Shown here: piece after piece, positions 6,747 to 64,000 of the stretch
How the letters are laid out: each line of letters begins with the position of its first letter
How positions within the stretch are numbered: position 1 is the stretch's first letter
Assembly: GCA_900758495.1 (NCBI GenBank)
Contig: CAAERO010000019.1
Span: 14,252-78,251, forward strand
Direction: 5' to 3'
DNA from: Bacilli bacterium
GTDB lineage: Bacteria > Bacillota_I > Bacilli_A > RF39 > UBA660
Length of the DNA stretch: 64,000 nt
The notes under the pieces: model-generated
The model's input: only the letters and a program-made list of their open reading frames with translations
Database searches by the model: none
What the model was told of the DNA's origin: nothing
Translations under genes and position numbers: made by a program

Positions 6747-6767
6747 ATATTTTATAACGTATAATTT

Positions 6768-16578: not shown

Positions 16579-16671
16579 CTATGTTCGTTCGACTCGAACC
16601 AGTGGCAGCTCCTGTGATGGGTAACTCTTCCTCATGTGTGAAATAACACAAATGGCAACTGAGCTGCAATC

Positions 16672-23297: not shown

Positions 23298-23437
23298 AGT
23301 AAATTACAGATTTTATCAGACATTAACAGATTTACAAGTAAACTTCAGAATATGCAATAGCATTACGATCTAGTAAGTGAGTTCTACTATACTTATACAC
23401 ATTAACAGTAAATTACAGATTTTATCAGACATTAACA
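23298..23437. repeat. Two identical 31-nt direct repeats 109 nt apart
   Basis: AGTAAATTACAGATTTTATCAGACATTAACA at 23298-23328 and 23407-23437. The core ACAGATTTTATC recurs at about 34750-34761. Confidence 0.85.
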
Positions 23438-23626
23438 ATTCGTCGTATTACTGAATACATTATTGAGATTAATTAACCTCTTTCAAAGCTTTATTAAAGC
23501 GGCTCTAAGAGACTGAGCAGGTTAGCAGAATAAGAGTAATACGCTAAATTTAAAAATTAGTATTAACAAAAAAATGATTGTATCTCGCTAAGAAATCAAT
23601 CTTAAAATCAAGTAGGAGATATTAAA

Positions 23627-36446: not shown

Positions 36447-36828
36447 AAAGAAATAGACAAAAGGTAGAGTAAAAAATGCTACACCTAATGTCTACAATGG
36501 TATAAAGTTCCGAAGTAAACTTGAAACCTATACATACAAAAAACTTAAAGAAGCTAAAATTCCAGCTGAATATGAATCAACCCACTTTGAGTTAATACCT
36601 AAGTTCGAATATAATGGAGAGAAAGTAAGAGCTATGACTTACTTACCTGATTTTATAGGTAAAGACTTTATAATTGAATGTAAAGGACTCATTGGAGATT
36701 CATTCCCTTTACGTTGGAAAATCTTTAAGTATACTCTAATGAAGAGTAATTCTAACTATAAACTATATTTAGTTAGAAACCAAAAACAAGTCGATGCTAT
36801 AATCGATGAATTAAAAACCAAAAATTAA
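36430..36828 (+). CDS. T7 endonuclease I-like Holliday-junction resolvase (PD-(D/E)xK); needs read-through of TAG at codon 9
   Basis: The conserved part YNGIKFRSKLETYTYKKLKEAKIPAEYE...MTYLPDFIGKDFIIECKG lies upstream of the only downstream start (36634). There is no ATG/GTG/TTG between the TAG at 36454-36456 and 36634. The in-frame ATG at 36430 gives MKPKNKKK-TAG-TKGRVKNATPNVYNGIKFRS... Confidence 0.6.
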
Positions 36829-39908: not shown

Positions 39909-40334
39909 ATGATAGATTTTAGTAAATACAATAAAGGGCTACGATTATACGCAGCCCTTTTTGAACTAAATCCTCATGTATTTAATACTGATACTTTTAT
40001 AGATATGCTAATACTTAATAACAATAGTATTGGATTAGTCTATAATAGATTATATGATCAGTATATTATCTCTGAGATTACTCAGAATAGATTCTATTAT
40101 AATAAACGGTTGGTATTTTATAATGGAACAAAACAATATGCCTATGTACTTACTCTTTTTGATAAGGAATACATAGACATTTATAAAGATATTTATATAA
40201 ACGGATCTTTACTCTTAAGTAAGCAATTTTTAATTAAAGTTTGTATTATTTGGAAAGATTTTTTAAGTGATTCTTTTTTTGATTGTTTAAAATGTGAAGC
40301 ATGTGAACAGTGCCAACAAAAAAGCCAGGTGTAA
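39909..40334 (+). CDS. Hypothetical protein (141 aa); last gene of the rightward block
   Basis: Intact ORF. Its TAA lies inside the bidirectional terminator loop. Confidence 0.65.
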   Translation: MIDFSKYNKGLRLYAALFELNPHVFNTDTFIDMLILNNNSIGLVYNRLYDQYIISEITQNRFYYNKRLVFYNGTKQYAYVLTLFDKEYIDIYKDIYINGSLLLSKQFLIKVCIIWKDFLSDSFFDCLKCEACEQCQQKSQV

Positions 40335-40351
40335 TAGCCTGGCTTTATTTT
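40317..40351. terminator. Bidirectional intrinsic terminator at the convergence of the + and - blocks
   Basis: AAAGCCAGG (40321-40329) pairs with CCTGGCTTT (40338-40346). An A-run precedes it and TTATTTTT follows. Confidence 0.8.
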
Positions 40352-43300
40352 TAATTACCTGCGATTTGTTTATCGTAGTATCTTCGTTTACTTGGAATAT
40401 CATTAAGTTCTATAACATTCTTAAATGGAGTAGACTACCAGAAAGCTTTTTCTAGTTGAGTATCTCCTTTGTATGCTCCTCTAGATATTACTTTATTTTT
40501 ATCTTTTTTATCTGTAAATAATCCATATACTTGTTCTATAGGATAAGATACAATTGCACCAAAATTATCTATTAAGCTATATAACGGTGTAGGAGTTTTA
40601 ATAGTACTATATACATCTGTAAGCTTATATGGAGCTCCTGATTCAAAAGAGGTTCTTGCCATTACATAAGCAAATAAGTTTAATAATTTATTACGCTTAT
40701 CATCATCTGCGGCTTGTCCTGTAATATAGGCTATAAATGGCCACATAGCAAGAATAAGAGATAATTCTACTTTAAGTTTTTTAAGATTAGTTCTTGTTAA
40801 CTCATCTTGTATTCCTTTATTTAATACAAGTTGGTTAAAAGAAGTAGTAAGAATATCTATACCTTTTTTGTCTTTGTATATTTCAGAGAATACTCTTAAT
40901 GGAGTTCTTAATAGTCCTTCTACATATCTCTAAGAAGTATAGTCCCACTATTTAGACATTGTCCATCTTTCTTGCATAATGATAGGTATATACTATCTAT
41001 GCATCATACACATAGCACCAAATACATTAGTAGTAAATTGTGCTTTCTATAAAGGTGTAAGCTAACCATCTGCAGATGCGGCTAGATTCTTAGCCGTATT
41101 ACCTACAGTAAATTTAGCTTTATTAACAGCATATTGGTCTTTAGGGTCAATGGCTTTTAATTCTCCATTAACAAATTTGATAGAAGCTTTAAAGGATTTG
41201 TATTTCTTCCAATTATCCTTAGTATCTTCTGTTCTACCATATTTGTTAAAATATTCCTCTTTAGATAGAAACACACCGTTTACATTTTTATAGTTGTACA
41301 TAACAGAATTTAGAATTTGTCCTTTAATGAAATAATCAGACATAGAATAAATTCCAAATGCCCACTCATTCTGTAATACGTTGAGCCATCTATTACGGTT
41401 TGTATTTCTTGACAAACTTTCTAATGTAGAACCTACTTCAAAATAATCCATAGCTGCCATCTGAGGACTCTTATAATGCTTATTGCCAGCATTAATGCCA
41501 TACTTAAAGGTATCATATACTAAGTCCTTGAAACCCGCTGCTGCATCAGAAAAATCATAATATCTACCAGTAATTGCATTTACTAAATGTGAATGCAAAG
41601 CTGTAAAGAATCCAGTAAAAGCACAAGCAAAATTCAAACCTAAGTTTCGCAGAGTACCATAAATACGTAAGTTATTAAATAACTTAGTAATGTTATACTC
41701 TCTTTCTCCAATAGAGAATGTAATAGAGTTAAGCTTAACATCATATACATTCATATCTATGAACTTCTTCGCAAACTAATAAATGTTAGTCTAATCTCCA
41801 TCTTTAGGTTCTATTTTCTATTTGAAGAATTTCTTAACAGCAGCTGCTACTCCAGTATTAGAACCAGTATACTTTCTTTGACCTAAGAAGGCTTTAATGT
41901 TTTCTACTTTAGCTTTAATAGCTGATTTCTATTTAAAGTTCTCAGCCATTTTAAAGTATTGAATAACAGAACCAACCATATCTGCAGAAATAGTAGCAGG
42001 ATCATCTAAGTCTTTAATAAAGTACTATGGAACCATAGCTAAAGAAGTACCATCAGGTGCGGTTCTAACCTTCTTCTGCATACCCTAATCATCTCCCTTA
42101 ACAGATACACTATCAAGTAAATAATCTTTAGTAGCAGTAAAAGGATTATAATTATGAGCCTTTAAGAATTTATACCAAGAGCCTGATATCTATGGCAACT
42201 TATACTTATTTAAATTATGTAAATTATCTAATTTATTATTAGACTCTTCCATAGTATCTATAATAGCTTGACGTAATTCCTTAAGCTCTTTATTCTGCAT
42301 CACAGCTTTATAAGCCTTACTGTTATCATATAAAGACATCTTAGGCTGATAGTATTCATCATTAGTTCTATCAAAGTTCTTATTATAGAAAGGAGATTCT
42401 TCAGATATTTCAGAGAAATTCATTGAAGGTTGTACAGTTATATATTTATCATCTTTAGGTACAATCTTAGTATAATAGGATTTAGGATGTACTCTACCTT
42501 GTGCATCTCTATAAGTATGTCTAAGCTCAAAATCTTGAAGAGTACCAGGCATTTCCTAATCAAGCATAGCTGCTTCTGCATAGTCTCTTCTATATCTATC
42601 AGTAGGAACTATTTTAGCTATGTCTTCAAACTTAATACCAGCTTTCTACTTATTTGTTTTCTTAGACTTACGAATAACTCTCATTCGAGCATCTAATCTA
42701 TTTATTAAGTTCATAACATGATTAGACATAAGATTAGTATTAATCTCGCCAGTCTTATCATCTCTGAAAGCATTAAGTATTTCCCTTTTTTGACGGTTTA
42801 ATTCCTCATACTTTTCTCCATAGTTAGTTCTATCTACTTTAGATAATAAGTCATAGAATTCTTCAGAATATACTGTACGAGTATTTCTTTCGTACCACTT
42901 ATTATAGTCTTTATCGCTAAGTTCTTGTTCTTTCTATTTACGTACTGCTTCAAACTTTTCCATATTAGTCTTCATTTTAAGACCTTTGGCTATCTTATCA
43001 TTAAGTTCAGTAAGTTCGTCAGCTATTTGTCTTTCAATAGAACCTTCTGGCTTTTCATTACCCATAAGGTCATACTTACTTGCCAATTGTTTCTTTTCTA
43101 AGAATAAGACTTGTAACCTATTCCACTCTTCTTCAGTAAACTTCTCATACTGAATTATGCCATCTATATTCTTATACTTACTAGTAAGGTCTCGGATCTT
43201 AATCATAATATTTTCACGTGCATTAGACGCTTCATCACTAAGAGCATTAAACATATCATAATACTCTTTAGTATATTTACGCTCACAATGCTTAGAAAGC

Positions 43301-44580
43301 CATTCATTACGCTTACGATTATACTGAATACGTAATTCTCTATTCTCTGGTAAAGTTAATTCTCCAGGATGTAAACCTAATTCTTTCCTTGTATCCTCTA
43401 AGAACTTTTTATAGTCTCTTTGAAATTTACCGTAATTCCTTTCTCTTACTATATAGCCTGTAGTTTTACCTTCATCATCTACTTCAAACAATACTTTTTG
43501 ATTGTTACCAGCAGCCTTTAATTTCTCTAATAAAGAGTGTGCTTTCACAAAAGTATTATTATTAATAGTATTTTCAGTATTTTGAAGTATATTGAATAAT
43601 GTCTTGATAGCTTCATCATTAATCTTATCGCCTGCACCAAACCATCGTGTAAGAGAAGAGATATCGTTATTAGTCTCCTTAGTATTCTCAGCTAAGTAAT
43701 TATATATAGTAGGTGAACCTACCTAGATACCATTGTTAAGCATAATCTCTCTGGCATTCTATACCTACATGCGCTTAACATGATCAGAGCAGGCATCAAG
43801 AATAGATTTACATATAGATAAGTCTGACATCAATTTATCATATTCTTTAGTTCCTATAATATCACTATAACTTGATAAGTCTACTAAAGAATTATACACT
43901 TCATTTGCATATTTACAGTAGAATCCGAAGTAGTTCTTATTAAGAGAAACTAATCTTTCGTCAGATAAAGCATTAGTACGATTATTATACGCATCTATTA
44001 CTTCTCTTGCCACTGTTCTAATATCATCCTTAAGTTCGTCAGTAAAGTCCATAATAACTTTTATGTCCTCTATAACTCCATTCTATATATTCTTTATCTG
44101 ATATTTGATTTGTTCTTTTAATTCAGTTCTCTTAGCTGGATCCTTTTCATCAATAGAATTAAGACGAGATATAAGACCTTGTTCGAGATTCTTTCGTATA
44201 CTTCTTAATCTATCATCTAATTCTTTCTTAGTATTAAAGTTATACTTATTTAAATTATCAATAGATACTTCTATAAATCTAGCATTTTCATCTGTACTAG
44301 ATAAAAACTACTCTTCAAAACTTAGGTTTCTTGTCTATATATCGGCTGACAAATAATCAAAGCTTTTAGCTCTCTCAATTATAGCCTTATCTCTATCTCC
44401 ATTATATTTCTATAATAGGTCTTGGAATAGCTAAGACTAAGATCCATCAGGATCCTAGTCTATAGCATAACCATTATTTTCAGATATGACATAATAAGCA
44501 GCGTCTTCACTATTAAGTACCTTTGCTACTTCATCAAAAGCTGCTTTAACTTCTTTATTCTTTAAATTTAAACACTGCAT
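40351..44580 (-). CDS. Large virion-associated/ejected protein (1409 codons, function unassigned); TAG-recoded
   Basis: Track fragments 40435.., 41062.., 42190.., 42934.., 43765.. share one frame. ATG at 44580 lies 2 nt after the upstream TAA. The frame continues past the TAG at 40435 to TAA at 40351-40353. Gap 40747-41064 was checked codon by codon: 5 TAG, no TAA/TGA. Confidence 0.75.
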
Positions 44581-44582
44581 AA

Positions 44583-47500
44583 TTATTCACATTCTTTTCT
44601 ACGTTTCTTACCCAATTCCGCTAATGCAGACATATCTTCAAAACTTTCATTCTGTGCTGTATCAGATACAGTTTCTATATCAGGAGCAGATTGGGCTTCA
44701 AATACTTCAGTCAATTGACTTACATCTTCTATTTGTTGCATAAAATCTTCTATTGCCTCAATTGCAGTAAAGTCTTCTGTTTCGATAGTACCATATACAA
44801 AATCAGTAGCTTCTTGCATCATTTCTGGAGTAATAGTAACATCTTCTGTTGGAACAATTACGTCTTCAACATCAATATTAGATACATTATCCATAACAGG
44901 ATTTCCATCCTCTGTACCTGCTATTTCCTTTGCATCCTATTCTATTCTTGCTTTAATAGAATTTATTTCTCCAGGGAAGAACTGTTTAGTAAAACCAGAA
45001 CCAGCTTTAGGATCTTTAATAGCCTTTAATGCTAATGCTTCAATTTCACCTTCAGTCAGTAATGCATTATAATTAAATGAATTAGCTTCAAATGCAGAAG
45101 GTTCTAAGCTATGTTTCTAGAATTCCATAACTCTAAATCCATTATCAATAACACCTAATTTAGGTATTCTTTGATATATATACTTAGTACCTCTTCCTAC
45201 AGTTTCACCTTCTTCATTAATATAAGAAACTTGACCTACTTTTCTATATAGTTCTGTTACTTTAGAAGTACCAGCTCCATTTACTACTTTAATAAATTCT
45301 TTCTTAGAACGTGAAGTAGCAAATAAATCTGTTTTCAAGGTAGTTCTTACTCTTCCTCTTTCAGAAGTACGATGTAATACTTTATCCCCTTTTTCCACAT
45401 TTATTTCAAATGGTTGAACTACACTATCATCCTACCATAAGTTACGTGCAATAGTAATATTGATAGAAGGGAAATACAAGGCCTCAGCATTATCATTCTC
45501 TTCAGCAATAGAAGCATAAGCAGCTTGATTAGAGGAACTCTTAAATGACTTTAAACCTTCTTTAATAACATTTACGTAACCGTTTTCTTCTTTCCACTTA
45601 TTAGGAACAAGATTAAAGAAGTTATTACTACCTCTTTCATCATAAGAAGTTAAGTATGCATACTTAGCTAAGTCATTAGCAAATTCTCTAACTATAGGAT
45701 CATCAGACTCAAGTAATTCAGCAAAAGCAGATACTAATTGATTCTCGGTCTCATAGTCATTACTTAAGGAAGAATCAGATAATACAATACGGTCTATTAA
45801 CTGTACTGTACCATCCGCTTGATATTCCTGTAAATAATTAAGTAACTGATTACGTATATAACCATCTTGACCAATTAACGACGGGAATCTATCTTTGTTC
45901 TCCATTATGTACTACTTGATGCCAGTTAACCTTTTACACATACTATCTTCGCCATATAGCATCCCTACTAATTCTTCATCAGTAGCATGTAATGCGGGTA
46001 AGTCTCTAGACAGTCTTGCTCTAATAATAGAGTCGATATAGGAAGAGAATCTGTTTACGAATTTCTTATCCCCTATATGCTTATAAGCTATTGCCTCTTG
46101 TCCATTATTATATACAATGTCCTTTCTTTGACCAAATATACCCATTGCTGATGTGAAGATATTCTGGAATACCTAAGTTGCAGGGAATGCCTAAGAACGC
46201 AATAATTTACGTGGTAATGATGTACCATGATGTAGCTTAGTACTTAAGAATGTTTTACCAAAGTAAGTACGTAGAGCTTCTTGAGGATTCTTTTCATCAA
46301 ATTCCTATCCTTCAATAACGAAGTATTCTGCATTATCATAAATGAACGTCTCATATGAATTTCTGAAGTTCATCTACTGAGCAAGAGTGTTACCAAACTT
46401 CTTAGTATCAATCTAAGAACGATGTACTAATTCGCTTAATCTCTTAGCATCATTATTAAGCTCATTGTAAGCTTTAAGAACGATTAACTAAGTATAAGGA
46501 TCTTTAGTGGTTAGACCATTGATAAGACTACTATCATTGAACACAGTACTTCTATCGTGTACAAATTTAGTTTTGTCGTATATTAAATCTATACCTACTT
46601 CATCTGCTATACTATTATACTTCTTAATATGATCATACTTAGTAGGATCACTATTATCTAAAGAATCTATATATGACTTGTATTGTTTAAAGTACTTGTC
46701 ATATAAAGTAGCAACTACCTGATTTTCAGTCTAAGTAGTAACACCATATACACCCTTATTAGCAATCATAGAATCAGCAAATTCTTTCAATATAGGCTAT
46801 GCTAAAAAATAGAATGTAGTCTTACCCATACCACCACGTAACAGTAAGTTAGTCATGTTATAAGTAACTTGATTTACATTCAGAGCCATAATATATGGAT
46901 CTTTAGCAACGTCTACATGTGCATTAATCATTGCTGATAACCAGTCTAGTATTCTAAAACCATCTCTACCTCTGATAGCATCTATAGTTCCTAAACCATA
47001 AGGATTACCTTTAGTATATATCATCTATAGATGTACTAATTGAGTTAAACAGTGATTAGTAGAATTAAGTGCAAACGGAGCAATACCTGCTTTACCACCT
47101 GTATATTCCTCTTTACGAGCAAGTTGGAATGAAGGTAATAGTTCATACATTGGCAAAGCTTCCTCTTTAATAGAAGGCTGTATAAGAGGTAGAATATCTT
47201 TCTAAAGTAACTTAGTAAGAGTATCAATAGAAGCTCTGGTTTCTGCCATATTCTTGCTATCTGATACTACTAACTGATAACTCTATATAATCATATTCTA
47301 CAATGCCTTAGTACTCTGCTTGTCCTCTGGTAGTACGTTTCCTTCTTCATCTGTCTCATACTGCATTATATTACCATTCTCGTCATAATTAAGAGTAGCT
47401 AAATACAATTTATCAACGTCGAAGTCAGAACCAGTCATAGCAGTAAATTCATCAGGAACTATGATGGTATCACCTATTCTATCTGGTAACACATCTACTA

Positions 47501-50500
47501 CTTTAAAGCTAAACGTTGAAGAAAGACCCTGAGTAGGGATACGGTAACCAACACCCATAGGAGTGGCATCCTTACCTATTATACCTTTCTCAAGTAACCA
47601 TCTTCTCATTTGGCCATAACTACCTTGATACTCTTTTGGTACAATGTGTCTAAAGAAGTTAGTACTAAGCATGACATCCATACTACCGTCTTTATTCAAG
47701 AAACGTAATTTCTTACCATCATTAAATGCAGTACCTATTGCAGATTGTTTACGAGCACCAGTAGCTTTGAAACCAAATGAAGACATCTGAATAGCTGAGC
47801 CACCTGGAGTATTTAAATCTACTACTTGTTTATTAATGTAAGATATTATTCTGCTTTCAACCCAATTTCTTGAACTTGTAGCAGCAAGAGGAATACGGAA
47901 TTCACCATTTTCATCTAACTTAAATCCATCAATTACTTCATCAGACATACCTGAAGAAACGGCCTGACTTATTAAGTAATCTGATAAAGCTTTATTATTA
48001 ATAGTACCGTCTTTAAGGAATCGTTTTAATACGTCATTGGCTCCTCTTACAGATAATTTATTAATAGCACTCATTACTCTTTCTTTGATTTGAGCACCTG
48101 TAACAGACTGTCCTTTATTATTACCATAAGTACGATTATCTATAAGGTTACCAAGGCATATCTTAACTGCCTAAGTACCAAATGAACGATCCAAATGTTC
48201 ATGAGGACTAGTATTAAGCTGCAATCTTAAGTTACTGATATCCTACTTAAATACTGGTAGATTACCCTCTTGGTGATACTTATCATAAGACGGTTTGCCA
48301 AGATCTTCTATATTGAAAGTATTATTCATACTATCCAAATATGTTTGATACTTTTGTCTACCACCTACTTTAACAGCAGATTCAAAAGTAAGCATATCGA
48401 TAGTTCCCAGTTCCTCATTGTTCATGCGCTCATAAAGAAGTCTATTATCACCTTTAGCCAACACCTTAAACATAGGGAACATTGCCATCTTATCAAATAC
48501 TGGTATATTCAAATTAAGCTGGCTATCTCGATGATCACCAAAGTAAACCATCTTCAAAGGATTGATAAGAGCTGAAGTAGTTTTAGCATACTTAACAGGA
48601 TCATTAAGCCAACTTTCGTCTTCTCCTTCCATTATTCTATATGCTTCTTCTATTTCATCAGACCAGTTACCAAGTGCTTTCATGATACGCCTGTATAAAG
48701 CAGGACGTACATATACAGCAGCATCAGATTGGTTAATAGCTCCGTCACTATAAGGATTAGCGCTATTCTTAGAATAACTATCTACAAACTTCTATTGCTC
48801 TTTATCCAAAGAATCATAGAACTTCTATTCCTTTTCTTCAGTATTAAGAGCTTCTATCAACATATCATCTGTATAAGCAGGATATCTTTGACTAAGCAAA
48901 TCTCTTAATATAGAGTTACGGAATATCTTATACAATTCTCCATAGTATTCAGAACCAATTTCATTATCCTTCAAATGCAATACACTAATAGAAGTGTCAT
49001 TTTCTGCAGGATTGTCCCATATAGTTCTAAGATTAGTACCAGTAGAAAGTACAGCAGATAGACGTTTGATCTTGTCTACATCTCGACCAGATATAACATC
49101 GTAGCTTGCTATTACTTCTCCACTATCGTCTCTTACTTCCTTATTAAACTTCTTCCATTTATAGTAAGCAGGGTCACCTGTAAAGCATTTCTCTACCTCT
49201 ATAATAGATAAAGCACTATTAGCTACATGAGAACCAATAATAGAGTACAGTATATCTTCATTAAGTAATGAACCTTCTTCCGTAGTATACATACCATTAT
49301 TAGCTGCTTTTTTATAGTAAGAGTATATATTATAAGGAATAAGTTTATTTACAAACCTACCATTTTTGAAGCCCAATATACCTCTATTTACAAGTTTGTT
49401 CATCTCTCTTGTAGTAGCTCCTACAAGTAGATTATTCATAGCTTGATAAATATTAGCACTTGTAGTCAGTTCTTCACTACTATTAACTCTTTCAAAACCG
49501 AGCAATAATACTTTAAGATCTTTAAGATACTACATTACTTCTTCATTAGAACCATTTTTTTCGAGGTTAGCTAAATCCTAGTTAATATTAATGATTCTGT
49601 CACCAACTCTAAGACTACTAAAGTATCTAAATCTACCACCATTACCACTAGCGTCCATCTTACCATTCTTAATCTTACCGTGGTAATTATCAACTCTCAG
49701 AGTAGGATTCTTCTCTACAAATGGCTTATGAACATAGTAATCGAATACTGCATCAAATTCATCTAACCAGTAATTAATAAAGATATCGAGAGTTCTTTTA
49801 CTAAATCGTCTATCATCAGTAATGATTAAAGACACATCATCGGGTATCTCTTCACCTAATACAGCATAGTAATTAGCTGTACCTTCATCAAAGTACTTAG
49901 AGGTTATAGTATCTCTTACTAATTGTAAACCAGATATACTGTACCAAGTCTTTTTATCAGACATAGTAGGTAGTATCATCTGATTGTTGAAGGTAAGAGT
50001 TAATTTAGCTATATAGTCTTCAATAGGTGTAATGCCAAAGTAATCACGACTTGATTCTCCTATATTAAGTGCTAAGAAGTTATGCAACTTAAAGTTAGTA
50101 TCTTTAGCATTTGCAATCAAACTTCTTCTACTATAAGGAGTATCTAATATCTATTGTCTTTTACCATGAGCATCTTTATTGATATTACGTACCTAATCTG
50201 AAAAATAATTATTTTCGCTAATAGGATATACTAAAGCACCATCTGCTCCTACTACACTGAATTCTTGTGGAGACGGATGTACCTTACCATATGCTACAGC
50301 CATTTTATTAATCTGAGCATCCTTAGAGCTATAATTGAATATACGGTCAATAGTTCTTGCTGTACCTTGCCCAGAACGCTTTTTAATATAAGATTTACCT
50401 GATAAGCCAAGAGCTACGATATCACCTAATACACCGTTATTAAAGCTCTATCTTTCCTTAGAAGACCAGAATGAAATAAACTTGTTTAATTGTTCATTAT

Positions 50501-53500: not shown

Positions 53501-56500
53501 CATCACTAGGTATCTAAAAGTCGTCAACTTCATTCAAATGTCTATAAACAGGATTACCGTTTTCATCTACTATGTTATTAAGAGTACCATTGCTGATACG
53601 CATATTAGTAGGTTTAACGTGTTTTGCTGCCTCTAGAGGCAATCTACCATCTGTAAAATAGTTCGGTGCGTATTGTTTGATGATCTTAGTTCTAAGGGCA
53701 AGCAAATGGCTAATCTGAGCATCTACATCTTCAGGAGTCATACCAAGATTAAGTAGGTCATCTCTCAGACTTTGAGTAATAGCTCTTAAAGAAGTATTAT
53801 ATACTATACCATCTTTTTCTATAATCAGATGTATAGCTAAGTTCTTCAATGCGGTATCTCCACCACTCATATCATGTGTACTTGAGGTTACCACATAATA
53901 TGCGTCATCTACCGTACTAAGCCATCCTGGAGTAGCCAGGTTAACTGCTAATACAGAGCCAGGTCTACGTTCAGCTGCTTTGCCATCCTTTGTAATGAAT
54001 GTAACAGGTTTGCCTGCTACTGTAATAGGCATTACTTCATCAGTAGTAGGTAAGTAGAAGAAAGTATTAGCTATGTAAGCTCTCTTTTGTTTACTCTTAG
54101 TAATAATAGGATTACGTTCGTCCATATCTGCTGTATCATTAGCATACGTAGCAGGACCAGTAAATCCATCATCATACATTTCGTCAAATACATTTTGTAC
54201 TTGAAGCATTTCTTCTCCTATAGTAATAGAGTTATCCGGATTCTATTGCATAGTAGGATCCCATTTTACTTCATCTGTAGCAGGGTCAATGTATACCTCA
54301 GATGCTTTACCTTCTTCAAGAGTAGGAGGAGCTACTTTATCTTTCTATGCTTCCTATATTGGAGCAGGAGTAGGTTCAATGCTAGGAGAAGGTTCTGGTG
54401 TTTGTACTTCAGGTACTTTTGGTTTCTTTTCCTCTATAGTAGAAGGAACGTCTTTGTCTTCTTTTTCTTCTTCAAATGAAGACTGAGAATCATCGTTTGC
54501 TGCTTCTTCAGCAGAATCATTAATAGGATTTTCTGGAGTTACTTCTTCTACAGCATTGGTGGCTATCTCTATATCTAATTTAGAATTATCGTCATTATCC
54601 TAATTGTTATTAACAGCTTCCTCCTATACCTTAGTACGCTCTGTATCATCAACATAAGTATCGTCTAATTCATACTCTCTAGCTTCTTCTTCATCGAGTA
54701 ATTCTTGAGGTAATGTCTCTAATTCAGGATTTGCTTCCTATTCCAATTTATTTACAAGAGTTTCAATCTAAGAAATAGTTTTACTATCCTCATCTTCTTT
54801 TTCCTTCATCTCATCCTGAGGTACAACAGGAGGAGTATTTTCTTCCATTGTATCCATAGGAGATTCAGTTTTCTCAGCTGGAGAAGGTTGTTCTAAAGTA
54901 GCAGGTTCCTCAGTAGTTACAGTTTGAGTATCTTCATCAACTACAGGTTCTTCTGCAGGAGTACCCTACTCTTCTTCTTTTTCCTGTCTTGCTACCTGTT
55001 CTTTGCTATCTCTACGTATTAAATCTCTTTGAATAACAGATACAGCTCTACGCTTATAAAGTGATTGCTTATCAGCTAAGTTCTCGCTTTCATCCCACTC
55101 CTTATTTACTTTGTCATTGTAGTCTTTGATTACCTGTTGTTCAGATCTAGGCTGTCTTCCATTAGCTTCATCTTCATTAGCTGCATTAGTAAGTATAGAT
55201 TGTCTTTGAGCATCTGTTATATTATCCCAAGTAGGTCTATAAAGTCTTGTATCGCCAGCATAAGAACCGACGATATATGCAGCATTATGTTGAATAAGAT
55301 CTTGTGTAGCTCCGTCATTAATAAACTTCTCAGTAAGAGCTTGTTCTAATTCCTCTTGATAGGGAAGAGCTATAGCGTTTAATGCTTCTTGTTGCTCTGT
55401 TGTTCTTTTATTCTATTTCTTTAGATTCTTAATATACTATTGAATTCCAGATATACCATCTATGTTGACGTCTAAGTTTAAGTCCTACTTTAGACGTTTT
55501 AAATCTTGCTTTCTATTAGATAGCTCCGTATCAATAGTATTAAGAACTTTAAAATAAGTATTATTTATAAGATTATTAATAGCACTCTCTCTATATTGAA
55601 CAAAGTCTATTGCTTCATCTCCTTCTAATTCGTCTACATATTGATTATACATTAGTCTAAACATACTATCTAACGTATTATCATTACGTATTTTAGATTC
55701 AAGTTCTTCAATAGCTTTAGTAGAATTTTCAGAAGCTTGTGTCTGATCATTCAATCTATCACGTAAATTAATGGCATTCTTGATAATCTGATTATATTGT
55801 GTATCACCAAAAGTAGCATTAATTTGATTAGCTATATCATTAAGTTCTTTATTAGAGACATAAGTAGATACAGTATTAGCTAAAGCTATGTCTTCATCAA
55901 TCATTTCATCAGTTACACCTTCTGGCTTATATTGTTTCAATGATTGTAAAGAGTTACGTATTCTACCAAAGTTATTACCATTCTACTTAGAAGCGGAGAT
56001 AAACTGATCTATTTTGTTATCTCTTTCAGCATCAGCATAATGATCAGCAGTAAGACCTCTAAGTTTATTGTCTGTTAATACCTGCTTAGTGCCTTCATAT
56101 ACATCCCTAGCTCCATATACTCCTGTCATAAACAAACCAGTAAATCCACCAATCTTCATTTCATTGATAAGATCCTTATCTGTATTAAGAGTATTATCTG
56201 GATGTATTCCATAGTAAGCTAAATTGGCTTCTAATCCTAGATTAGCCATATTGGCTGCACCACTTAACAAAGAATATCCTTCAGCATTATCATAATCTCC
56301 TTTTTGATATCTACTAGATACTAAATTCTGAACACCTTCTTCAGTACGTTCAGTAAAATAACTTAATCCTAAAGCTTTACCTAATTTAGTAATAGTACTT
56401 AAAGCATCCTTAGTAGCTACTTTACCCATAGGGTTCTTAGATATCTTATCAGCTACTCTGGTAAGGGTATTATCAAGTATGGAATTACCTGCCTCAGCTA

Positions 56501-58097
56501 ATCCTCTATTAGATACTGACTAAGCCATTTCAGCAGAAGTAGCCATGTTAGGAGTCTTACCCAGTAATCTACGCATACCATATGCTCTAGACAGCCATTG
56601 GCCACCATATGAGAATAAAGTAGATTCTACATAATCAGGAATAGATAAGGCTGAGTTAGTCTGTTTTAATACTTCTAAACCCTTTTTAGATTCGTCAAGT
56701 ATTTCGTTATATCTTGGATCGTCAGTCTTTAACTGTTGTGCTACGGATGCTTGAAATATTTCATAATCATCCATATCATCTACAGGATAGCCTAATGAAG
56801 CCAATCTAGACTTCGTCTGATTAGTAATATTAGAAATATTAATACCTAATTCATTAGCACCATTAAGTACTCTTTCTTGATATGCAGAGAATGCTTCTGA
56901 AGATGTTTCACTATCGCGCATATAAGAAGCTATGGCATAGTTAACTCCAGCTTCAGTCATAGCATATAACAAAGGTAAAGTACCACCAGAGCTTGCAGAG
57001 AGAGCTCCTTTAGCTACTCCATTCAATATAGCACTGGCTCCCATTTGACCAATCATAGCTCCAAATTCTGAGTAACTACTACCTAAATGAGGCAATGCGT
57101 AATACCAACTCATAGGATCGTCGATACTAATTTCGTTTCTCTCGAATTTAGCTTTGAATTCTGGGTCTATCTTAGTAGGATCGAATAATAGATTACCTTT
57201 CTTGATAGTGTTAATCTTAGCTTGAATATCTTCTTCTTTAGATTTCTTTCTGGCATTAGCTACCTGTAAAGCTTCATCTAACTAACTTACTTGTGTAGAA
57301 AGAGAATTCATATCATTCTTATTTCTACTATCCCACATAAACTACATTTGTTCAGGACTGAGTTTACCTATATTACCAAATATAGTATTAACTCCCTCAG
57401 CAGACAACATGTGTTTAAAGTTATTATTGGGATTTAAGTCAGCAGAGTAATTTGCATTAAGGTAGTCATAAGTTAAATATTTTAAATAATCTTTAACACT
57501 ACCAAACTTCTCACGATTCTTAAATAGTTCTTGAGGTCTTGTTTCATAAAATATATCCTGCAGATAAGGATTAGTTCTAGCCATTTCCTTAACAGCAGGT
57601 TCTAATTGAGCAATTTTTTGGCTCAATTCATTCTAACGAGTATAGGCTGCAGCTAATTGTGAATCAGACCAGTTATACCCATTAAGCTCTATATTCCTAT
57701 TTAAGTCTATTAATTCTTGTTTAGAATTTAAATAGTCTTTAGCATTTTCTAGTTGAGGAACCCATAATCCTTCAGTAGAAGATAGCTCACTATACTTCTT
57801 ATCCAAGTTAACCTAATGACCTTGTACATTAGCTTGTCTCCAAGGATCTAATACAGTGTGACCTATTTTATTATCTGTAATTATATCTAATAAGCTAAAC
57901 TCATTATCTTTTTCAGTTTTTGGTCTACTGTAATCAGCTTCTTCCAATTGTTTATGTACAGACTCAGCTGCTTCATTAAGCAACTGAGCCTATCTGGCTT
58001 CTTGACTGTATTCTTGTATTCCAAAGGTATCTAGCTTTGGAGTATCATAGAGCTCAAAATCTCTTGCTCTTTGTTTAGTATTAAGTATTTTATCCAT
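44583..58097 (-). CDS. Giant (4504-codon) virion protein containing a crAss-like virion RNA polymerase module; TAG-recoded
   Basis: 16 track fragments from 44583 to 57626 share one frame. ATG at 58095-58097 is preceded by an in-frame TGA at 58119-58121; the gene ends in TAA at 44583-44585. GSDFDVDKLY (DFDVD at 47412-47426) is a DxDxD catalytic-type motif with GYRIPTQG upstream. HEAFH lies at 52026-52040. About 2.9 kb of inter-fragment gaps were checked: only TAG interrupts the frame. Confidence 0.75.
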
Positions 58098-58105
58098 AAT
58101 AGATA

Positions 58106-59827
58106 TTAATTCATTCTTTCATACTCTGAAATGAGATTCTATGTATCTGTAATTTTACTGCTCAAATGTCTATTATCGTGAGTCCAAGCTGCATCTCTTG
58201 TAATTGCTGACTCACCTTCATCTGGTATTAAACCTAAAATTGGAACTCTAATAAATTCTCTTGTTTTATCTGACACAGTTCTAGAAGTACCATCACTAGT
58301 AGAACTCTATCTATCTGTTGTAGATGTAGTTGTATCTCCTAATTTAACCTTTCTCATTCCCATTGCAGCTCTTTCTTCAGGAGTGAAATCACTCATTTGC
58401 TCAATAGGAATATAAGCGTATTTTCTTTGGTATAAGAAGTTACCATCAGTAGTTACTTTAGGATCACCTTTGATAATAAAGTCGTGATACTTATTACCCA
58501 TTTGCCAATTGTGTTTAAATTTATCACGAGCTACCATACCTTTAACTGTAGTATCACTCAAGTTCTTAGCATTTCTACCGCCAGGATTAATAACATTTGA
58601 ACGAGTGGTTCCCATTAATCCGTAAGCAAAGTCTTCAGCAAGAATAAAGTTACGAGTATCGTTAGCTTCATATCCACCATAAGCTTTAGTACCATTAGTA
58701 CCCTATTTAGCATATACATCACTTACTTCAGGGCTAAGTGGACTGGACATAACATCTAACAGATAGTTCTCTGCAGCAACAAGACTCTTGTGATTTCTTG
58801 CTATTTGGTTAAAGCTATTACGCATTCTAGCCTGCATTACAGCAGGGTTAGTATTAGCAGCATAAATAGCCTAATCTTCAGGGGATAATGCATCTACACC
58901 TTTCTACATTACTACAGATACTTTATCAGGAGTAAGACCACTAAAGTTATCCATTAATGTCTTACGAGCATCTCTATGTAATATAGTAGTAAGATTGTTC
59001 ATTGCTTGAGCACTTCTATTAGCAGCAGCTTTCATCTGTAACTTAGCACTTTCCATCCACCAAGGATCACGTTCAGCCTAATCATATGCAAACTCTCTAC
59101 CAGCTGTGATTAGAGTGTTATTAAGTTGATACTCAGCATCTTCTTTACTAAGACCTTGTCTTTGTAATATTTCAAGATGCTTACGGTATTCAGGAGTATT
59201 CTGTATACTTGATAGATTCTTTTGAATTTCATAATCTGTTCTATCTGTAGATACTCCAGAGTGTATCCAACCATTTGACACTCCAATAAAGCTAGCCTTC
59301 AGGTTATCAACATATGGTTTAACTAAGTCTACTTCTGATTTATAGGCTAAAGGAGATATATCGTTGAATATATCATCCTGTGCTGTATCATAATTAGTAA
59401 AGTCTACATCATGCCATAAAGGGTTATATTTACCAGATAACATTAATTGTTGATTTGCTTTCTATCTAGCAAGCATACCCTCTCTACTCTACTTAAGTCT
59501 ACTTAAATAACCGTAATCGATATTATTAATTCTCTATTGTAGTCTAGATCTAAAGTTAGCATCCTTCATAGCATCTGGATTAGTAGATGCCTCTTGAATT
59601 AAATCAGAGAACTTACCTATAGAATTTCTATAGTAGTTTTCTGTATCTACTGCAGAAGGAGATTGAAACTCTCCAAATGTAGTAATTGTATTTGTCAAAT
59701 CTTTTGCAGCCTAATCTACAGCTTCTTTCTGTGCTGCACCTATCCTATATAATTCACCAAAATTAATAGGAACGTATGTGTTTAATATAGGAGCTTCTGC
59801 AGCTCTATCATATCTATTTGCCTACAT
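58106..59827 (-). CDS. Virion-associated protein (573 codons, function unassigned); TAG-recoded, second codon is TAG
   Basis: ATG at 59825-59827, TAG at 59822-59824, TAA at 58106-58108. Joins track fragments 58307..58615 and 59078..59443 in one frame. Confidence 0.7.
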
Positions 59828-59838
59828 AATTTATCCTA

Positions 59839-61842
59839 TTATCTTAAGTACTTACTCCAATTCTTAATAGCATCTGATGTAAATCCTGCCTGTAAGAACG
59901 GTTTATATAATTCAAGCATAGCCTTATCTCTCTTACTTTGATTACGCATAAGAGATTTGTTTTGTGCAAATTGACTCAACTGACTTAATCCAGCTCTACG
60001 AATATTACGAGCAGAAGCTCTATTTTGTGCATTGAGATCTGAAGCGAGGTTTGTAGCATTGACCCATTGTTTACCAAGATCATTCATAGCATTAGCGTAT
60101 TCACCTTTATACTGATTATTAACATTACTTTCAGTAGCTCTGGCTGCAGCTTTAGCTTTATTTGCTTGGATAGCATTCTATAATCTAAATGCCATATTAT
60201 GACCAGTATTAGTCATTTGTTGACTTGCACTATAATTAGCCACATCTCTATTTTGCTCTATATCTCTAAGTAAAGGATTAATATTATATCTACGTCTACC
60301 CATAGTATTAGCAATAGCAGATGCGTATGGATTATAATTAGCCTATACTGATTCTGGATTACCTGTGAATAGATTAGACATTATTGGAGCTAGTGTTGCA
60401 AAGTCACTAATAGCGTCTACCCAGTTAGGACTATTTACTTCAGGAGTATTAACTGTAGTAGGATTAGTACCTATAGTAGGCATTATACTTCTAGTTCTAA
60501 TATCTTGAGGAGTAGCGGATACTTCTGGTACTATTTCATCAATAGTACTTAAATCAGACATTATCTCTGGAGCAACTACAGATTTAGCTACTCTAGGAGT
60601 AGCCTTTTTAGAAATAGTCTAAGAACTACTAAATTTAGTTCTTTTGGGAGCAGTAATAGTCACTTCAGGTAATGTACCAGCATTTACTTCTGATACTCTA
60701 CCATAATTATCCCAAGGAGCAGTAACATCTCCTTTTATACCCCAAGTATCTCTAACTCTTGGTGTAGGAGCACTAACACCCATACTGATTTCACCAGCAA
60801 ATCTAGGGTCTATCATAAAACCAGCAGCATTGTATCCAGCTGGAGTATTGTCACCTCCTCTAGCAAAACTCTCTAGTTCTTTAGTTTTATTCTTAATACC
60901 TTTCTTAGCTTTAATACTTTCTTGCATAGCAAATAGTTTGTCATGCATTAATTTATTATTCATCTCATTAAGCATATTTGCATTCTAAGCGTATATGTCT
61001 TTTCCTTTACTTTTCTTTCTAGTCATTACTTTATCACCTAATTCTGCAAAGGTTTTATTTGTACCAGGCACTTTCAAAGTATTACTTAATATTCTACTTC
61101 CTTCTGGTAAGTTTACTAAATTACTGTCTGTAGGCTATCCTTGTTCAGGTACTTTACTTACTGAACCATCTGGAGTCTATATTAATTCTCCATCGTCTAC
61201 ATAAGCCAATGATGAAGGAACTTTACCACCGTACTCAAATACATCAGTATCAAATTCTGTATTATCTTCATTAAATTCATTAGCTAATCTTTCTGTACCA
61301 GCTACAGCTTCTCTATTTTGAAATGCATTCAACCTTATAGCTGCTCTACGTCTTCTAAGTTTCTTATTTCTAAATGCACCTCTTAAGCCAGTACCCAGAG
61401 TACCTTCATCAAAGTCAGTAAATGAGGTCATTTCTGCTGCTTTTCCTTTCTTACCAATAAGACCAACTGCTGCACCAGCAATACCACCTACTAAACCACC
61501 TACAGGTCCACCTATAGTCATACCAAGTTGTGCTCCAGATCCTGCACCTTCCGCTATACCAGTAAGAGATTGCATAGTAGCCTCTCCACCAGTAGTAGCA
61601 GTAGAAGTCTAGAAAGGACTTGTCAATGTATTTATGGCTCCAGGTATTGCCTAAGCTATTTCTGATATATTTCCTATATTTGTATTAGCAGGATTATTCT
61701 TAATCATAAGATTGTTAGGGTTATTTGGAGCAGTCCCCCTAGCCATTGATGATTGTAATTCCTACATATTACTTAAAGATACCGGCAAACCAAACTACGC
61801 AGCAGGAATCTATATCTTTCTTTTCTTTGTATTCTTTTTCAT
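59839..61842 (-). CDS. Virion-associated protein with a Gly-rich hydrophobic segment (667 codons); TAG-recoded
   Basis: ATG at 61840-61842 (MKKNTKKRK...), TAA at 59839-59841. Joins fragments 59839.., 60343.., 60619.., 61177.. in one frame. Contains AGSGAQLGMTIGGPVGGLVGGIAGAAVGLIG. Confidence 0.7.
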
Positions 61843-61843
61843 A

Positions 61844-64000
61844 TTAAATTCTAGAATATCTATAAGTAGTTGTTATCTAAGGCATCTAAAAAGAATAATC
61901 CTTATCTGATTTAAATTTATAATCACATATCATATATTTACCTCTCATTCTAGCAGGGAATGACATATTATCATCCTCTTCAAATGAATCCTGTCTTGGA
62001 ACTGGTAATCTATAAGTATCTTCACGATAGTCAAATACTAAATCCTAACCGTCTTTATTAGCTACCTAGTGTTTAGTAGTTAATTTAATACTATCAAGAA
62101 TATCATTGGTTAGTATTTTATTATTTGGATCTATAAAGTCTCCCTATAACTGAATATTATCAAATACTTTAGTATACTGAGGATCTTTGTTTACTACTAT
62201 CTTTAATCTAATGTCTTTACTAGTATCACCAAATCCTTCTATATCTAATGAATTAATGATATAGAACTCATTATTCTTAGTTGTTACAATTTTATCTGTA
62301 AGAGGTAACGTAAAATCTGGATCAAATGTATATAAAGATGTAAATGCGTTTAATTTTTCATTATATATCAAAGACTTATTATACAGTCTGAACCATACTT
62401 CATCATATTTCTTATCATACAATGAATTAGCTCCTTTAGTCTTTTGATTATACATGTTATTCATATAAGACTGCACGTTACAATCTTTTGATATTATACT
62501 TATTCCACTTCCTGTAGATTTACATATTTCATTCTTATTAGAATCGTACCAATATATGCTATTACTAGAGTTAACAATACTTCTATCATTAACTACATTA
62601 GTACCATTTAGAGTACTCAAATAATCGTATCTATCCAATACTCCACCAGTACCTAATACTAGTTGTCCTACATTGTTATCTTGTATTAGTGATCTTTCAT
62701 TTACAGATAGTATACCAAATGCATTATTCTACCAGAAGTATAGTCTATTGAATATACCTTTTATATTAGTTATCTCTCCATACTAATAATCTACATCTAT
62801 AAAATCAGCAGGTTTAAATATAGACCAATTATCTATATTCTCATTTGTAGTTTTAGCTTGTGAAACATATACCCTATTAGCTGATTTTACATTTGCTTCA
62901 TCATATAATCCTCTAGTACTAAATATTTTTCCATCAGGCTATGCAGAGTATGCGTCATTATATAAATAATAAGGTTTACTTTGCGAATGATATGTACCTA
63001 ATTGAACAGGTTCTATTTGCAAATATGCATCTACATTATTTGAAGCACCATTATATGTTCTATTAGTCATTTGCCCCATAGATAATTTCAAATTGATAGT
63101 GCTTTCTAATGGAATATACGCTCCGAAATAACGTTTTCGTTCAGACCAAGAATCACCACCAGAAGCTTCATTTCTTTGAAATATCATTTGAGATGGATAA
63201 TCTAGAATCCCAATATAAGTATCTCCCCCAAAAGCATATACTACAGGATTATTCTTATCGCCATATGACCCTATAGGTATATATGTAGAACTAGTTCTAG
63301 CTGAATAAGTATTACCGTTATATGGTATTAATGGTTTTTTTGCATTAACTACAATTAATGGGCAATTATCATTAGCATGTTCATCACGATAAAATGAAAT
63401 AGGTTGGATTGAAAGTATATCATCATCTGATACCTATAATATAAGACATGGACCAGCTGGGCCATAAGTAATTACATCTATGTTACTTCCGCCTTCATAA
63501 AAATTACTAGCAGTCCAATTAGAATAAGTAATGTTACCTATATTAGCTTTATAAGGTTTTACTCCGCCGTTTAGTACAGCGTTGTATGGTATTATAGCTG
63601 GAAGTTTTGCATCTACTATGCTTTGTTCCTTTCCTATAAATTTAGAATTTACTCGAAAGTAGAATTTCTATATATAAGCACAGTACCAATCATCATTGTG
63701 AATTGCAAATACTTGTGATGCTGAAGCTGACGGATTATTACCAGAATTATATACTTTAGTACTTTTTCTATTAGTAACATGAGATGTTCCTTCTGGTAAA
63801 CGCTAAGCTGAGTTATTCATAGCTACCCAGTTTTGCACATTTGTACCTTGCTGATCTGTATCTTGTTTACTGAAATCAGATATAAGAACGGCTTCCTATC
63901 TGAGATATATATTGTCTTTAAATAGAGCTTCAGTCTTTTCTCCATTAAAACATACTTCTGGTGATATAAACCTCCAATAATTATCAGTTATATCTTCTTC
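61844..64000 (-). CDS. Virion structural protein, N-terminus beyond the right edge; TAG-recoded
   Basis: TAA at 61844-61846 abuts the next ATG (TAA-T-ATG). The frame of fragments 62144..62638 and 62939..63187 continues across TAGs at 61877, 61886, 62045, 62066 and 62144. Confidence 0.7.

Follow-up and report, generated by a model that had tools for sequence, protein, structure and literature searches.

Amber codons as sense codons in the late genes of a gut crAss-like phage

A gene call in genetic code 11 destroys 24 kb of the window (the whole 64,000-nucleotide stretch of DNA analyzed here), including the genes for the terminase and a virion RNA polymerase. Is TAG a sense codon in these genes, and if so, which amino acid does it specify, what decodes it, and how far along the genome does the altered code extend?

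The window is from a human-gut crAss-like phage (Crassvirales, Suoliviridae) near Aurodevirus hominis cr125_1 and represents about two-thirds of the phage genome. It encodes a crAss-type TerL and a giant virion protein with an RNA polymerase (RNAP) motif and shows the conserved architecture of the Suoliviridae (Delta group); the best terL matches are all from Suoliviridae. The closest RefSeq relative, cr125_1 (NC_055900.1; Suoliviridae, Uncouvirinae, Aurodevirus hominis), shares 78.3% nucleotide identity over 88.6% of the window, and the two genomes are colinear. Under ICTV thresholds, species are delimited at 95% nucleotide identity and genera at about 70% over the genome. Over the 64 kb of about 98 kb compared, the window phage clearly does not belong to the same species as cr125_1, from which it differs as a separate species-level lineage, and the two may belong to one genus. 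Near-identical sequences without annotation are MT836416.1 (99.6%) and MT836720.1 (98.6%), and terL in some IMG/VR contigs is ~100% identical at the amino acid level across the 497 codons present in the window.

RAGATH-7, Hatchet, and RAGATH-9 RNAs are common to cr125_1 and the window, and RefSeq annotates a tmRNA in cr125_1 at a position syntenic with the window. A literature search for tmRNA or Hatchet/RAGATH RNAs in crAss-like phages found nothing directly relevant. For an ORF-free stretch at 21.7 to 23.6 kb, an E-value Rfam scan and a repeat scan found no explanation.

Open reading frames of the late block

With only TAA and TGA taken as stops, positions 40351 to 64000 of the minus strand hold five back-to-back ORFs of 1,409, 4,504, 573, 667, and more than 718 amino acids. 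Across the five, TAG occurs in frame 119 times; TAA and TGA interrupt none of them, and every stop is TAA. The stop-to-stop bounds are 40351-44586, 44583-58118, 58106-59830, 59839-61872, and 61844-64000, the last running off the window. An earlier note on this DNA had proposed that the minus-strand fragments collapse into five runs ending in TAA, and exactly five such ORFs were found; its TAG counts for individual gaps (5, 8, 4, 4, and 3) all match the listed TAG positions. The spacers between consecutive ORFs are 2, 8, 11, and 1 nt, as in TAA-TT-ATG at 44585-44578 and TAA-T-ATG at 61846-61840. The note had put the distance from each stop to the next ATG at 1 to 9 nt, which holds for the spacers of 2, 8, and 1 nt but, trivially, not for the one of 11 nt.

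The terL gene, which encodes the large terminase, behaves in the same way. Its N-terminal 497 codons lie at 1 to 1492 on the minus strand, where the gene runs off the window edge. As had been claimed, 8 in-frame TAGs are counted from the ATG at 1492 to the edge; a ninth TAG, at 1501, is upstream of this ATG. Over their full lengths, neither terL nor the five ORFs contain an in-frame TAA or TGA, giving 127 TAG and zero TAA or TGA codons in 8,368 in-frame codons for all six. In the off-frames of the late-block DNA, all three stop codons number in the hundreds. In the 13.5-kb ORF alone, the other two frames have 106 and 380 TAA and 60 and 272 TGA codons.

Under code 11, splitting the late block from stop to stop leaves 39 pieces that reach 60 amino acids, 26 of which reach 100; counting from ATG gives 28 ORFs with the same 60-amino-acid minimum. 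These figures are in keeping with the earlier estimate of about 35 fragments. ORFs of at least 60 amino acids cover 0.48 of the coding strand at 40341-64000 under code 11 and 0.99 with TAG as sense. Same-strand controls with TGA or TAA as sense gave 0.49 and 0.52. For the whole window, stop-to-stop coverage at 100 amino acids or more increases from 0.67 to 0.87 with TAG as sense. These values are ORF-based proxies and not Prodigal gene calls; the gain exceeds the 10% in coding density with TAG as sense that was used to recognize recoding in contigs of 5 to 100 kb (PMC9523058). TerL, RNAP, and structural genes are broken by TAG alone and never by TAA or TGA, the pattern expected of code 15.

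Each late ORF has an ortholog in cr125_1, and the five there contain 38, 78, 10, 5, and 29 in-frame TAGs. The 1,409-amino-acid protein (40351 to 44580, minus strand; 26 TAGs; TAA stop at 40351-40353) is the ortholog of gp020 and differs from it in being 224 amino acids shorter. The 4,504-amino-acid giant virion protein (44583 to 58097, minus strand; 59 TAGs) carries a crAss-type RNAP domain and is 79% identical to the 4,502-amino-acid gp021. Its residues from about 2940 to 3950 match PDB 6VR4, the phi14:2 gp66 virion RNA polymerase (E value of 1.3e-26), and the GSDFDVDK catalytic motif (RNAP DFDxD type) is intact in this region; the label "RNAP module" given to it earlier was correct. The 573-amino-acid protein (58106 to 59827, minus strand; 11 TAGs, one at codon 2) and the 667-amino-acid protein (59839 to 61842, minus strand; 11 TAGs) are orthologs of gp022 and gp023. 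The former had no Pfam or PHROG match, and PHROGs gave no match for the 667- and 1,409-amino-acid proteins. The last ORF (61844 to 64000, minus strand; 12 TAGs) is the C-terminal part, 718 codons long, of the gene for a virion structural protein orthologous to gp024 (1,376 amino acids) and matches phrog_28748, "virion structural protein" (E value of 1.2e-89). The window terL is 85% identical in amino acid sequence to that of cr125_1.

If the TAGs were real stops, the block would consist of pseudogenes, fragmented genes, or an assembly or sequencing artifact, and the 39 code 11 fragments would be its expected appearance. This explanation is effectively refuted by the complete lack of TAA and TGA in frames whose off-frame counterparts are full of stops, by the same TAG pattern in 80 independent contigs, and by ortholog identity that continues past every TAG with catalytic motifs intact. 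The late proteins align to those of cr125_1 over their full lengths at 69 to 85% amino acid identity, unbroken across every TAG, and the match to 6VR4 likewise spans several TAGs. TAG is thus a sense codon in these genes, a phenomenon already documented for this phage lineage (crAss-like phages) in 2021 and 2022.

The amino acid specified by TAG

Comparisons at the DNA level indicate that TAG in the late genes is a glutamine codon. Evidence for glutamine was taken from codon comparisons, and database protein homologues were set aside because TAG is already rendered as Q in many public gene calls and the argument would then be circular. The RefSeq annotation of cr125_1 already reads through TAG. 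In a codon alignment to cr125_1, 104 window TAGs face 38 TAG, 38 CAA, and 4 CAG codons, the rest being mostly GAA or AAA. The TAG sites thus turn over between the two phages, with 38 of the 104 shared. Of the 66 window TAGs aligned to a cr125_1 codon other than TAG, 42 face glutamine, while glutamine codons make up only 3.3% of all codons aligned to cr125_1. The CAA:CAG ratio at these columns tracks glutamine codon usage and not mutational proximity to TAG. About one-third of the columns not facing TAG hold E, K, D, or other residues, and these are variable columns; the non-glutamine residues have the substitution profile typical of Q.

Three further comparisons gave the same partner. In the 80 closest IMG/VR relatives, terL has 4 to 14 in-frame TAGs each, and conserved TAG columns across these independent contigs contain only TAG, CAA, and CAG, with the exception of one AAA. 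No standard-code relative was found among these 80 terL loci, all of which have TAGs, and more distant RefSeq phages were fetched to supply a standard-code comparison. In the standard-code phages cr10_1, cr50_1, and cr55_1, terL is free of TAG; at four of the eight window TAG columns, all three encode glutamine, and glutamine fills 14 of the 24 cells overall. Of 7 TAG positions aligned to phi14:2 gp66, whose structure has been solved experimentally, 4 face Q. The strong preference for glutamine that TAG-aligned columns were expected to show is therefore present in all four comparisons. None of the three outcomes that the earlier note had named as refuting its reading was observed.

TAG might instead have been reassigned to pyrrolysine or to Tyr, Lys, Glu, Leu, Ser, or Trp, each of the last six being one mutation away from TAG, and E or K does occur at some TAG columns in the comparison with cr125_1. 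We consider this very unlikely. Glutamine is the overwhelming partner of TAG in the four independent comparisons; CAA is the commonest partner despite being two mutations from TAG, while TAT/TAC, TGG, TTG, and TCG are essentially absent. Pyrrolysine decoding would involve a pylT-type tRNA together with pylS/pylBCD, with TAG not aligned to a standard amino acid. Here TAG aligns to glutamine, and the complete annotation of the colinear genome of cr125_1, on which this point rests, lists no aminoacyl-tRNA synthetase or Pyl genes. Proteomics found Q at TAG codons in two other crAss-like phages (PMC9523058).

The tRNA of the phage also argues for glutamine. An amber suppressor tRNA gene with anticodon CTA and a tRNA-Gln-like body lies at 1734 to 1808 on the minus strand (ARAGORN; Rfam tRNA, 54.8 bits), about 240 nt upstream of terL and on the same strand. 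ARAGORN labels it "Pyl," which could be taken to favor pyrrolysine, but the name follows from the CTA anticodon alone. Among its nearest neighbors from outside the crAss-like phages, the three tRNAs that were checked are tRNA-Gln species with CTG or TTG anticodons, and its cr125_1 ortholog is annotated as tRNA-Gln(CTA). The aminoacylation identity of the window tRNA would accordingly be glutamine, as far as its body indicates. Some of its BLAST neighbors are annotated as tRNA-Arg or tRNA-Leu.

The position of the tRNA gene is conserved. Of 36 related loci, 31 have a tRNA(CTA) ahead of terL. One is also found upstream of terL in cr125_1; the window differs from cr125_1 in lacking an HNH gene and a tRNA-Met between the suppressor tRNA and terL. 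This position is not universal, since no suppressor was found within 4 kb upstream of terL in the other 5 of the 36. An alignment of 13 copies folds into a cloverleaf, with compensatory changes in 15 of 20 pairs and an invariant CTA. The minimum free energy fold of the single tRNA gave no cloverleaf (z = −0.3) and was uninformative. As read from the aligned copies, the conserved position, compensatory stem changes, and invariant anticodon are the signature of a functional gene under selection.

The five relatives with no detectable suppressor within 4 kb of terL, together with the imperfect agreement between recoding and suppressor tRNAs noted by Yutin et al. (PMC7886860), would fit read-through by other means, such as a host suppressor or inhibition of RF1 by the phage, with the tRNA(CTA) being incidental. 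The selection signature of the tRNA and its location exactly at the head of the recoded operon make this highly improbable, and decoding by the phage tRNA is the preferred reading.

Early genes and the border between codes

TAG accounts for 127 of the 387 inferred glutamine codons in late genes (33%), against 2 of 263 (1%) in early genes. The blocks at 1873-7226 (minus strand) and 8106-40334 (plus strand), which hold the early and middle genes, fit the standard code. The earlier proposal that TAG is sense was borne out in the late genes but does not extend genome-wide: in the early and middle blocks, TAG is avoided and acts as a real stop at gene ends. TAG is the first stop in 4 of 51 early genes, two of which have a cr125_1 ortholog with TAA in the same place or close to it. 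The converse is seen in three early genes of cr125_1, which carry TAG at sites that are TAA or TGA in the window. For two or three early genes, read-through of TAG is required. A blanket code 15 call over-extends several early genes past genuine TAG stops, and RefSeq NC_055900.1 appears to have over-extended gp008, gp084, gp082, and gp067 in this way. Annotation of the window genome needs block-aware codes.

At the convergent junction between the standard-code plus block and the recoded minus block is a GC-rich hairpin flanked by A and T runs (40320 to 40349; AAAAGCCAGG-tgtaata-GCCTGGCTTTATTTT), read from the sequence. Strand and GC skew both switch at this hairpin, which marks the border between the code blocks and is likely a bidirectional terminator.

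Lone TAGs in two early genes stand apart from this pattern. The first is in a putative Holliday junction resolvase (36430 to 36828, plus strand; DUF1064/PD-(D/E)XK nuclease) that matches Pfam DUF1064 at 46 bits and PHROG_190 at 5.8e-13; its single TAG is codon 9, at 36454-36456. An in-frame TAG separates the only ATG from the conserved catalytic core in 74 of 80 recoded relatives, corresponding to 32 of 35 distinct variants of the N terminus. The TAG drifts in position over 5 to 24 codons within a Lys-rich leader, and no second TAG occurs in the remaining ~116 codons in any of the 80. In standard-code cr10_1, cr50_1, and cr55_1, the leader has no TAG and contains glutamine (CAA or CAG) two to four codons before a conserved Val. 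An alternative arrangement, with the TAG ending a short upstream ORF and the true start located downstream, was rejected: no ATG follows the TAG, the codon for the conserved Val is GTA or GTT and not GTG, and in the standard-code relatives the Lys-rich leader is part of one uninterrupted ORF.

The second lone TAG is codon 26 (5697-5699) of a gene for a 123-amino-acid protein (5403 to 5774, minus strand), called "transcriptional regulator" in cr125_1 by RefSeq, in an otherwise TAG-free block upstream of the suppressor tRNA. The only Pfam match of this putative regulator is a sub-threshold one to MarR_2. All 46 close relatives compared have TAG at codon 26, and 33 more distant ones encode K or D there. 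This invariance is only a hint, because the same clade also shows no variation at one of the eight TAG sites in terL.

We tentatively suggest, with less than even confidence, that this lineage uses single 5′ "sentinel" ambers in selected genes of its standard-code block to time their translation individually. The putative resolvase offers the clearest case, and the putative regulator could be a second. If so, the resolvase would be made only after the suppressor tRNA appears, which would suit an enzyme needed only to debranch DNA before packaging and potentially harmful earlier. The words "resolvase" and "Holliday" are absent from the two preprints on code switching that were searched for them. 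The leader amber, if a real gate, would offer a compact, testable example of a regulatory model so far supported mainly by gene-set statistics.

The code switch as a proposed late-gene timer

The arrangement is very probably that of a late operon written in code 15 and decoded by a phage tRNA(CUA), with early genes in the standard code and the switch acting as a late timer. The late minus-strand operon would run from terL through portal, head, and tail genes outside the window to the virion proteins and RNAP, ending with the 1,409-amino-acid protein at 40351, with UAG read as glutamine throughout. The predicted decoding agent is the tRNA with the CUA anticodon and tRNA-Gln-like body at the head of this operon. 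Early and middle genes, fitting the standard code of the host, would be translatable on entry. The suppressor tRNA would then accumulate, presumably charged by the host GlnRS, and the TAG-laden late genes would become translatable. Because late genes could be translated only once this tRNA had accumulated, the code switch would double as a late-gene timer. The order of early and late expression is suggested by gene functions and the literature.

Code 15, with TAG read as glutamine, has been described in crAss-like phages by Yutin et al. in 2021 (PMC7886860), Peters et al. in 2022 (PMC9523058), and Borges et al. (10.1101/2021.08.26.457843); the earlier note's statement that such recoding is documented agrees with the first two. 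The timer model, the coincidence of code switch and strand switch, and a Sup-CTA tRNA ahead of the recoded block have also been described (bioRxiv 10.1101/2021.08.26.457843 and 10.1101/2022.06.29.495998). Since the code-switch late-gene timer is already known in gut crAss-like phages, the window is a further instance of it and leaves understanding unchanged. As in other code 15 crAss-like phages, recoding is confined to late, structural, and lysis genes, replication genes use the standard code, a phage suppressor tRNA is present, GC content is low, and TAA is the dominant stop; the window differs from them in no way in kind and is one more such genome. It also resembles the block-wise multi-code genomes reported with Mgcod (10.1101/2022.06.29.495998), in that code and strand switch together (here at 40334/40351), a Sup-CTA tRNA precedes the recoded block, and the early block is almost dual-coded. 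It differs from those genomes in that its early block, with genes ended by TAG and genes reading through it, is not perfectly dual-coded.

TAG codons in the late genes

Megablast and blastn searches placed the window alongside crAssphage cr125_1 (NC_055900.1; Crassvirales, Suoliviridae, Uncouvirinae, Aurodevirus hominis), to which 88.6% of it aligns at 78.3% nucleotide identity with the same gene order. Two unannotated GenBank fragments, MT836416.1 (99.6%) and MT836720.1 (98.6%), and several IMG/VR contigs are near-identical to the window. The window has a GC content of 32.7%, and its GC skew shows three strand blocks: minus from 1 to about 8000, plus from about 8000 to 40340, and minus from 40351 to 64000.

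With only TAA and TGA taken as stops, the last of these (the late block) is read as five abutting minus-strand ORFs: 40351-44580 (1409 aa, 26 in-frame TAGs), 44583-58097 (4504 aa, 59 TAGs), 58106-59827 (573 aa, 11 TAGs), 59839-61842 (667 aa, 11 TAGs), and 61844-64000 (more than 718 aa, 12 TAGs). All five terminate at TAA with neither TAA nor TGA interrupting the reading frame, while the two alternative frames of the block hold hundreds of each. A further 8 in-frame TAGs lie in terL (1-1492). The late operon is unbroken around the genome, running leftwards from terL out of the window, reentering at 64000, and ending at 40351, where a GC-rich hairpin (40320-40349) parts it from the converging plus-strand block.

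The earlier note had claimed from the sequence that TAG is a sense codon in the late genes and terL. Its TAG counts for individual gaps all agree with the computed positions, and its only slip was to put every intergenic spacer at 9 nt or less (one is 11 nt). In the comparison of coding density that it proposed, ORF coverage of the late-block coding strand rose from 0.48 to 0.99 once TAG was sense but was 0.49 with TGA freed and 0.52 with TAA freed. Translation with the standard code (code 11) breaks the block into 39 stop-to-stop pieces 60 aa or longer. Such a pattern cannot be due to chance.

The 4504-aa protein contains the crAss-type virion RNA polymerase: its residues about 2940 to 3950 match the solved phi14:2 gp66 (PDB 6VR4, E 1.3e-26), and the match takes in the catalytic motif GSDFDVDK. 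The ORF at 61844-64000 encodes a virion structural protein (phrog_28748, E 1.2e-89). PHROG searches found no family for the 1409-, 573-, and 667-aa proteins, nor did Pfam for the 573-aa protein.

Glutamine at TAG and the suppressor tRNA

Since many public protein predictions already render TAG as Q, codons were compared instead. Among 104 window TAGs aligned to cr125_1, 38 faced TAG, 38 CAA, and 4 CAG, and the rest mostly GAA (8) and AAA (5); Gln codons make up only 3.3% of the codons aligned to cr125_1. In the reverse comparison, cr125_1 TAGs faced window CAA 28 times and CAG 20 times. CAA is the commonest partner of TAG, in proportion to Gln codon usage, despite being two mutations away, and the correspondence therefore lies at the level of the amino acid.

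Comparisons with other relatives gave the same preference for Gln, the residue that the earlier note had expected. terL was recoded in 80 of 80 IMG/VR contigs, with 4 to 14 TAGs apiece, and its four conserved TAG columns held TAG, CAA, and CAG only, save one AAA. The terL genes of cr10_1, cr50_1, and cr55_1, standard-code Suoliviridae relatives, lack TAG, and all three share Gln at 4 of the 8 columns where the window has TAG. The phi14:2 polymerase, once aligned, had Q opposite 4 of 7 TAG positions. In late genes, 33% of the codons inferred to specify Gln are TAG (127/387), versus 1% in early genes (2/263).

The minus strand encodes a tRNA with anticodon CTA at 1734-1808, some 240 nt ahead of the terL start, and the same tRNA gene precedes terL in 31 of the 36 related loci compared. 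When 13 diverse copies were aligned, they folded into a cloverleaf with compensatory changes in 15 of 20 pairs and an invariant CTA anticodon. The "Pyl" label assigned by ARAGORN is a product of the anticodon alone. Outside crAss-like phages, the nearest matches are mostly annotated tRNA-Gln (three that were checked have anticodon CTG or TTG), with a few annotated Arg or Leu, and the cr125_1 ortholog is tRNA-Gln in RefSeq. Host GlnRS would presumably charge this suppressor tRNA. No release factor or aminoacyl-tRNA synthetase is listed in the complete annotation of cr125_1, whose genome is colinear.

TAG as a stop in the early and middle blocks

Among roughly 51 genes with homolog support in these blocks, TAG is nearly absent. 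In the early blocks it behaves as a genuine stop, as is shown by ortholog pairs that interchange stop codons. The final TAG (15962-15964) of window gene 15839-15964 occupies the exact site of a cr125_1 TAA, codon 265 of cr125_1 gp008 is a TAG at the exact site of a window TGA (34414-34416), and a TAG in gp084 lies opposite a window TAA (8676-8678). In two more early cases, similarity stops at the TAG. Early-gene TAG stops in the window are at 15962-15964, 12301-12303, about 10928-10930, and 4566-4568; early-gene TAG codons of cr125_1 are at record positions about 7551, 82157, and 92651. The first stop among the 51 genes is TAA in 38, TGA in 9, and TAG in 4. TAG thus carries two meanings in one genome, and blanket annotation with code 15 (TAG read as glutamine) overextends some early genes. 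In RefSeq NC_055900.1, gp008, gp084, gp082, and gp067 appear to be overextended through TAG stops.

The early block also encodes several RNAs. ARAGORN called a permuted tmRNA-like gene at 16487-16868 (plus strand; tag peptide GNTSYVTDYTRLVA), which scored 47.8 bits against Rfam tmRNA_permuted (gathering score, 47); in cr125_1, RefSeq annotates a tmRNA at the syntenic position, 87913-88362. We speculate that it might handle ribosomes that read through host TAG stops. Strong plus-strand Rfam matches at 9957-10146, 10209-10336, 14516-14648, and 16176-16343 comprise RAGATH-7 (170 bits), two Hatchet ribozymes (97 and 89 bits), and RAGATH-9 (147 bits). All four are found in cr125_1 too, in identical order, and a literature search found no report tying them to phages. 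About 1.9 kb at 21743-23627 has no ORF of at least 55 aa on either strand and no Rfam match at an E value of ≤0.1, and it carries a perfect 31-nt direct repeat (copies at 23298 and 23407). Most of the stretch aligns at about 78% identity to cr125_1, where its counterpart (92947-94799) is likewise unannotated. The early block also encodes an ECF-type sigma-70 factor (Sigma70_r2 and r4_2; 18600-19148, plus strand) whose amino acid identity to the cr125_1 ortholog, 94.5%, far exceeds the average for the genome.

Lone early TAGs and the published code switch

Two or three early genes require TAG readthrough. The clearest example is a putative Holliday-junction resolvase (36430-36828, plus strand; Pfam DUF1064, 46 bits; PHROG_190, 5.8e-13) in the standard-code replication block, with TAG at codon 9 (36454-36456). 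Of the loci in 80 relatives (61 to 99% amino acid identity), 74, representing 32 of the 35 distinct leaders, carry an in-frame TAG after the sole ATG and before the conserved NATPN core. No alternative start lies downstream of this TAG, and no relative has another one among the 116 or so codons that follow. Recoded cr60_1, cr125_1, and cr115_1 carry the TAG, and cr273_1 and cr118_1 lack it; in standard-code cr10_1, cr50_1, and cr55_1, the same leader is free of TAG and has a Gln nearby. Where present, the TAG lies anywhere from 5 to 24 codons ahead of the core, in a leader rich in Lys. We suggest tentatively, at less than even confidence, that the leader is selected for "a TAG somewhere," a suppressor-tRNA-dependent translational gate on a late-acting nuclease in an early operon. 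Alternatively, a single ancestral TAG may have been moved by drift and indel shuffling. The resolvase TAG may be a new observation.

The adjacent HNH endonuclease gene (35907-36446, plus strand) is 99.4% identical in amino acids to the cr125_1 copy, against a nucleotide background of about 78%. This high identity continues through roughly 40 codons at the start of the resolvase, suggesting that the gene homed recently and co-converted its flank.

A 123-aa putative regulator (5403-5774, minus strand), a "transcriptional regulator" in cr125_1 RefSeq with only a sub-threshold Pfam match (MarR_2), contains a single in-frame TAG, at codon 26 (5697-5699); the block upstream of the suppressor tRNA is otherwise TAG-free. 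All 46 close relatives have TAG at this codon, and the 33 more distant relatives have K or D. Such invariance is not exceptional: of the eight TAG sites in terL, one is equally invariant in the same clade. In the gene for an 89-aa hypothetical protein (4557-4826, minus strand), a third early-block in-frame TAG, at codon 43 (4698-4700), lies opposite Arg in cr125_1 and homology continues past it; either it is read through or the window copy is truncated.

[quoted passage not shown] Metaproteomics confirmed code 15 in two other crAss-like phages (PMC9523058), and recoding has been described as a brake on premature expression of late and lysis genes (bioRxiv 10.1101/2021.08.26.457843). The recoding claim of the earlier note is real and was correctly interpreted: of the features that define a code-15 crAss-like phage, the window has all those open to in silico testing. 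The value of the finding lies in annotation. In the published picture, early genes use the standard code, the suppressor tRNA stands ahead of the recoded block, and the code and strand switches coincide (PMC7886860; bioRxiv 10.1101/2022.06.29.495998). The nearly TAG-free early and middle blocks fit that picture, and the annotation of cr125_1 already treats TAG as read through, like our reading of the window.
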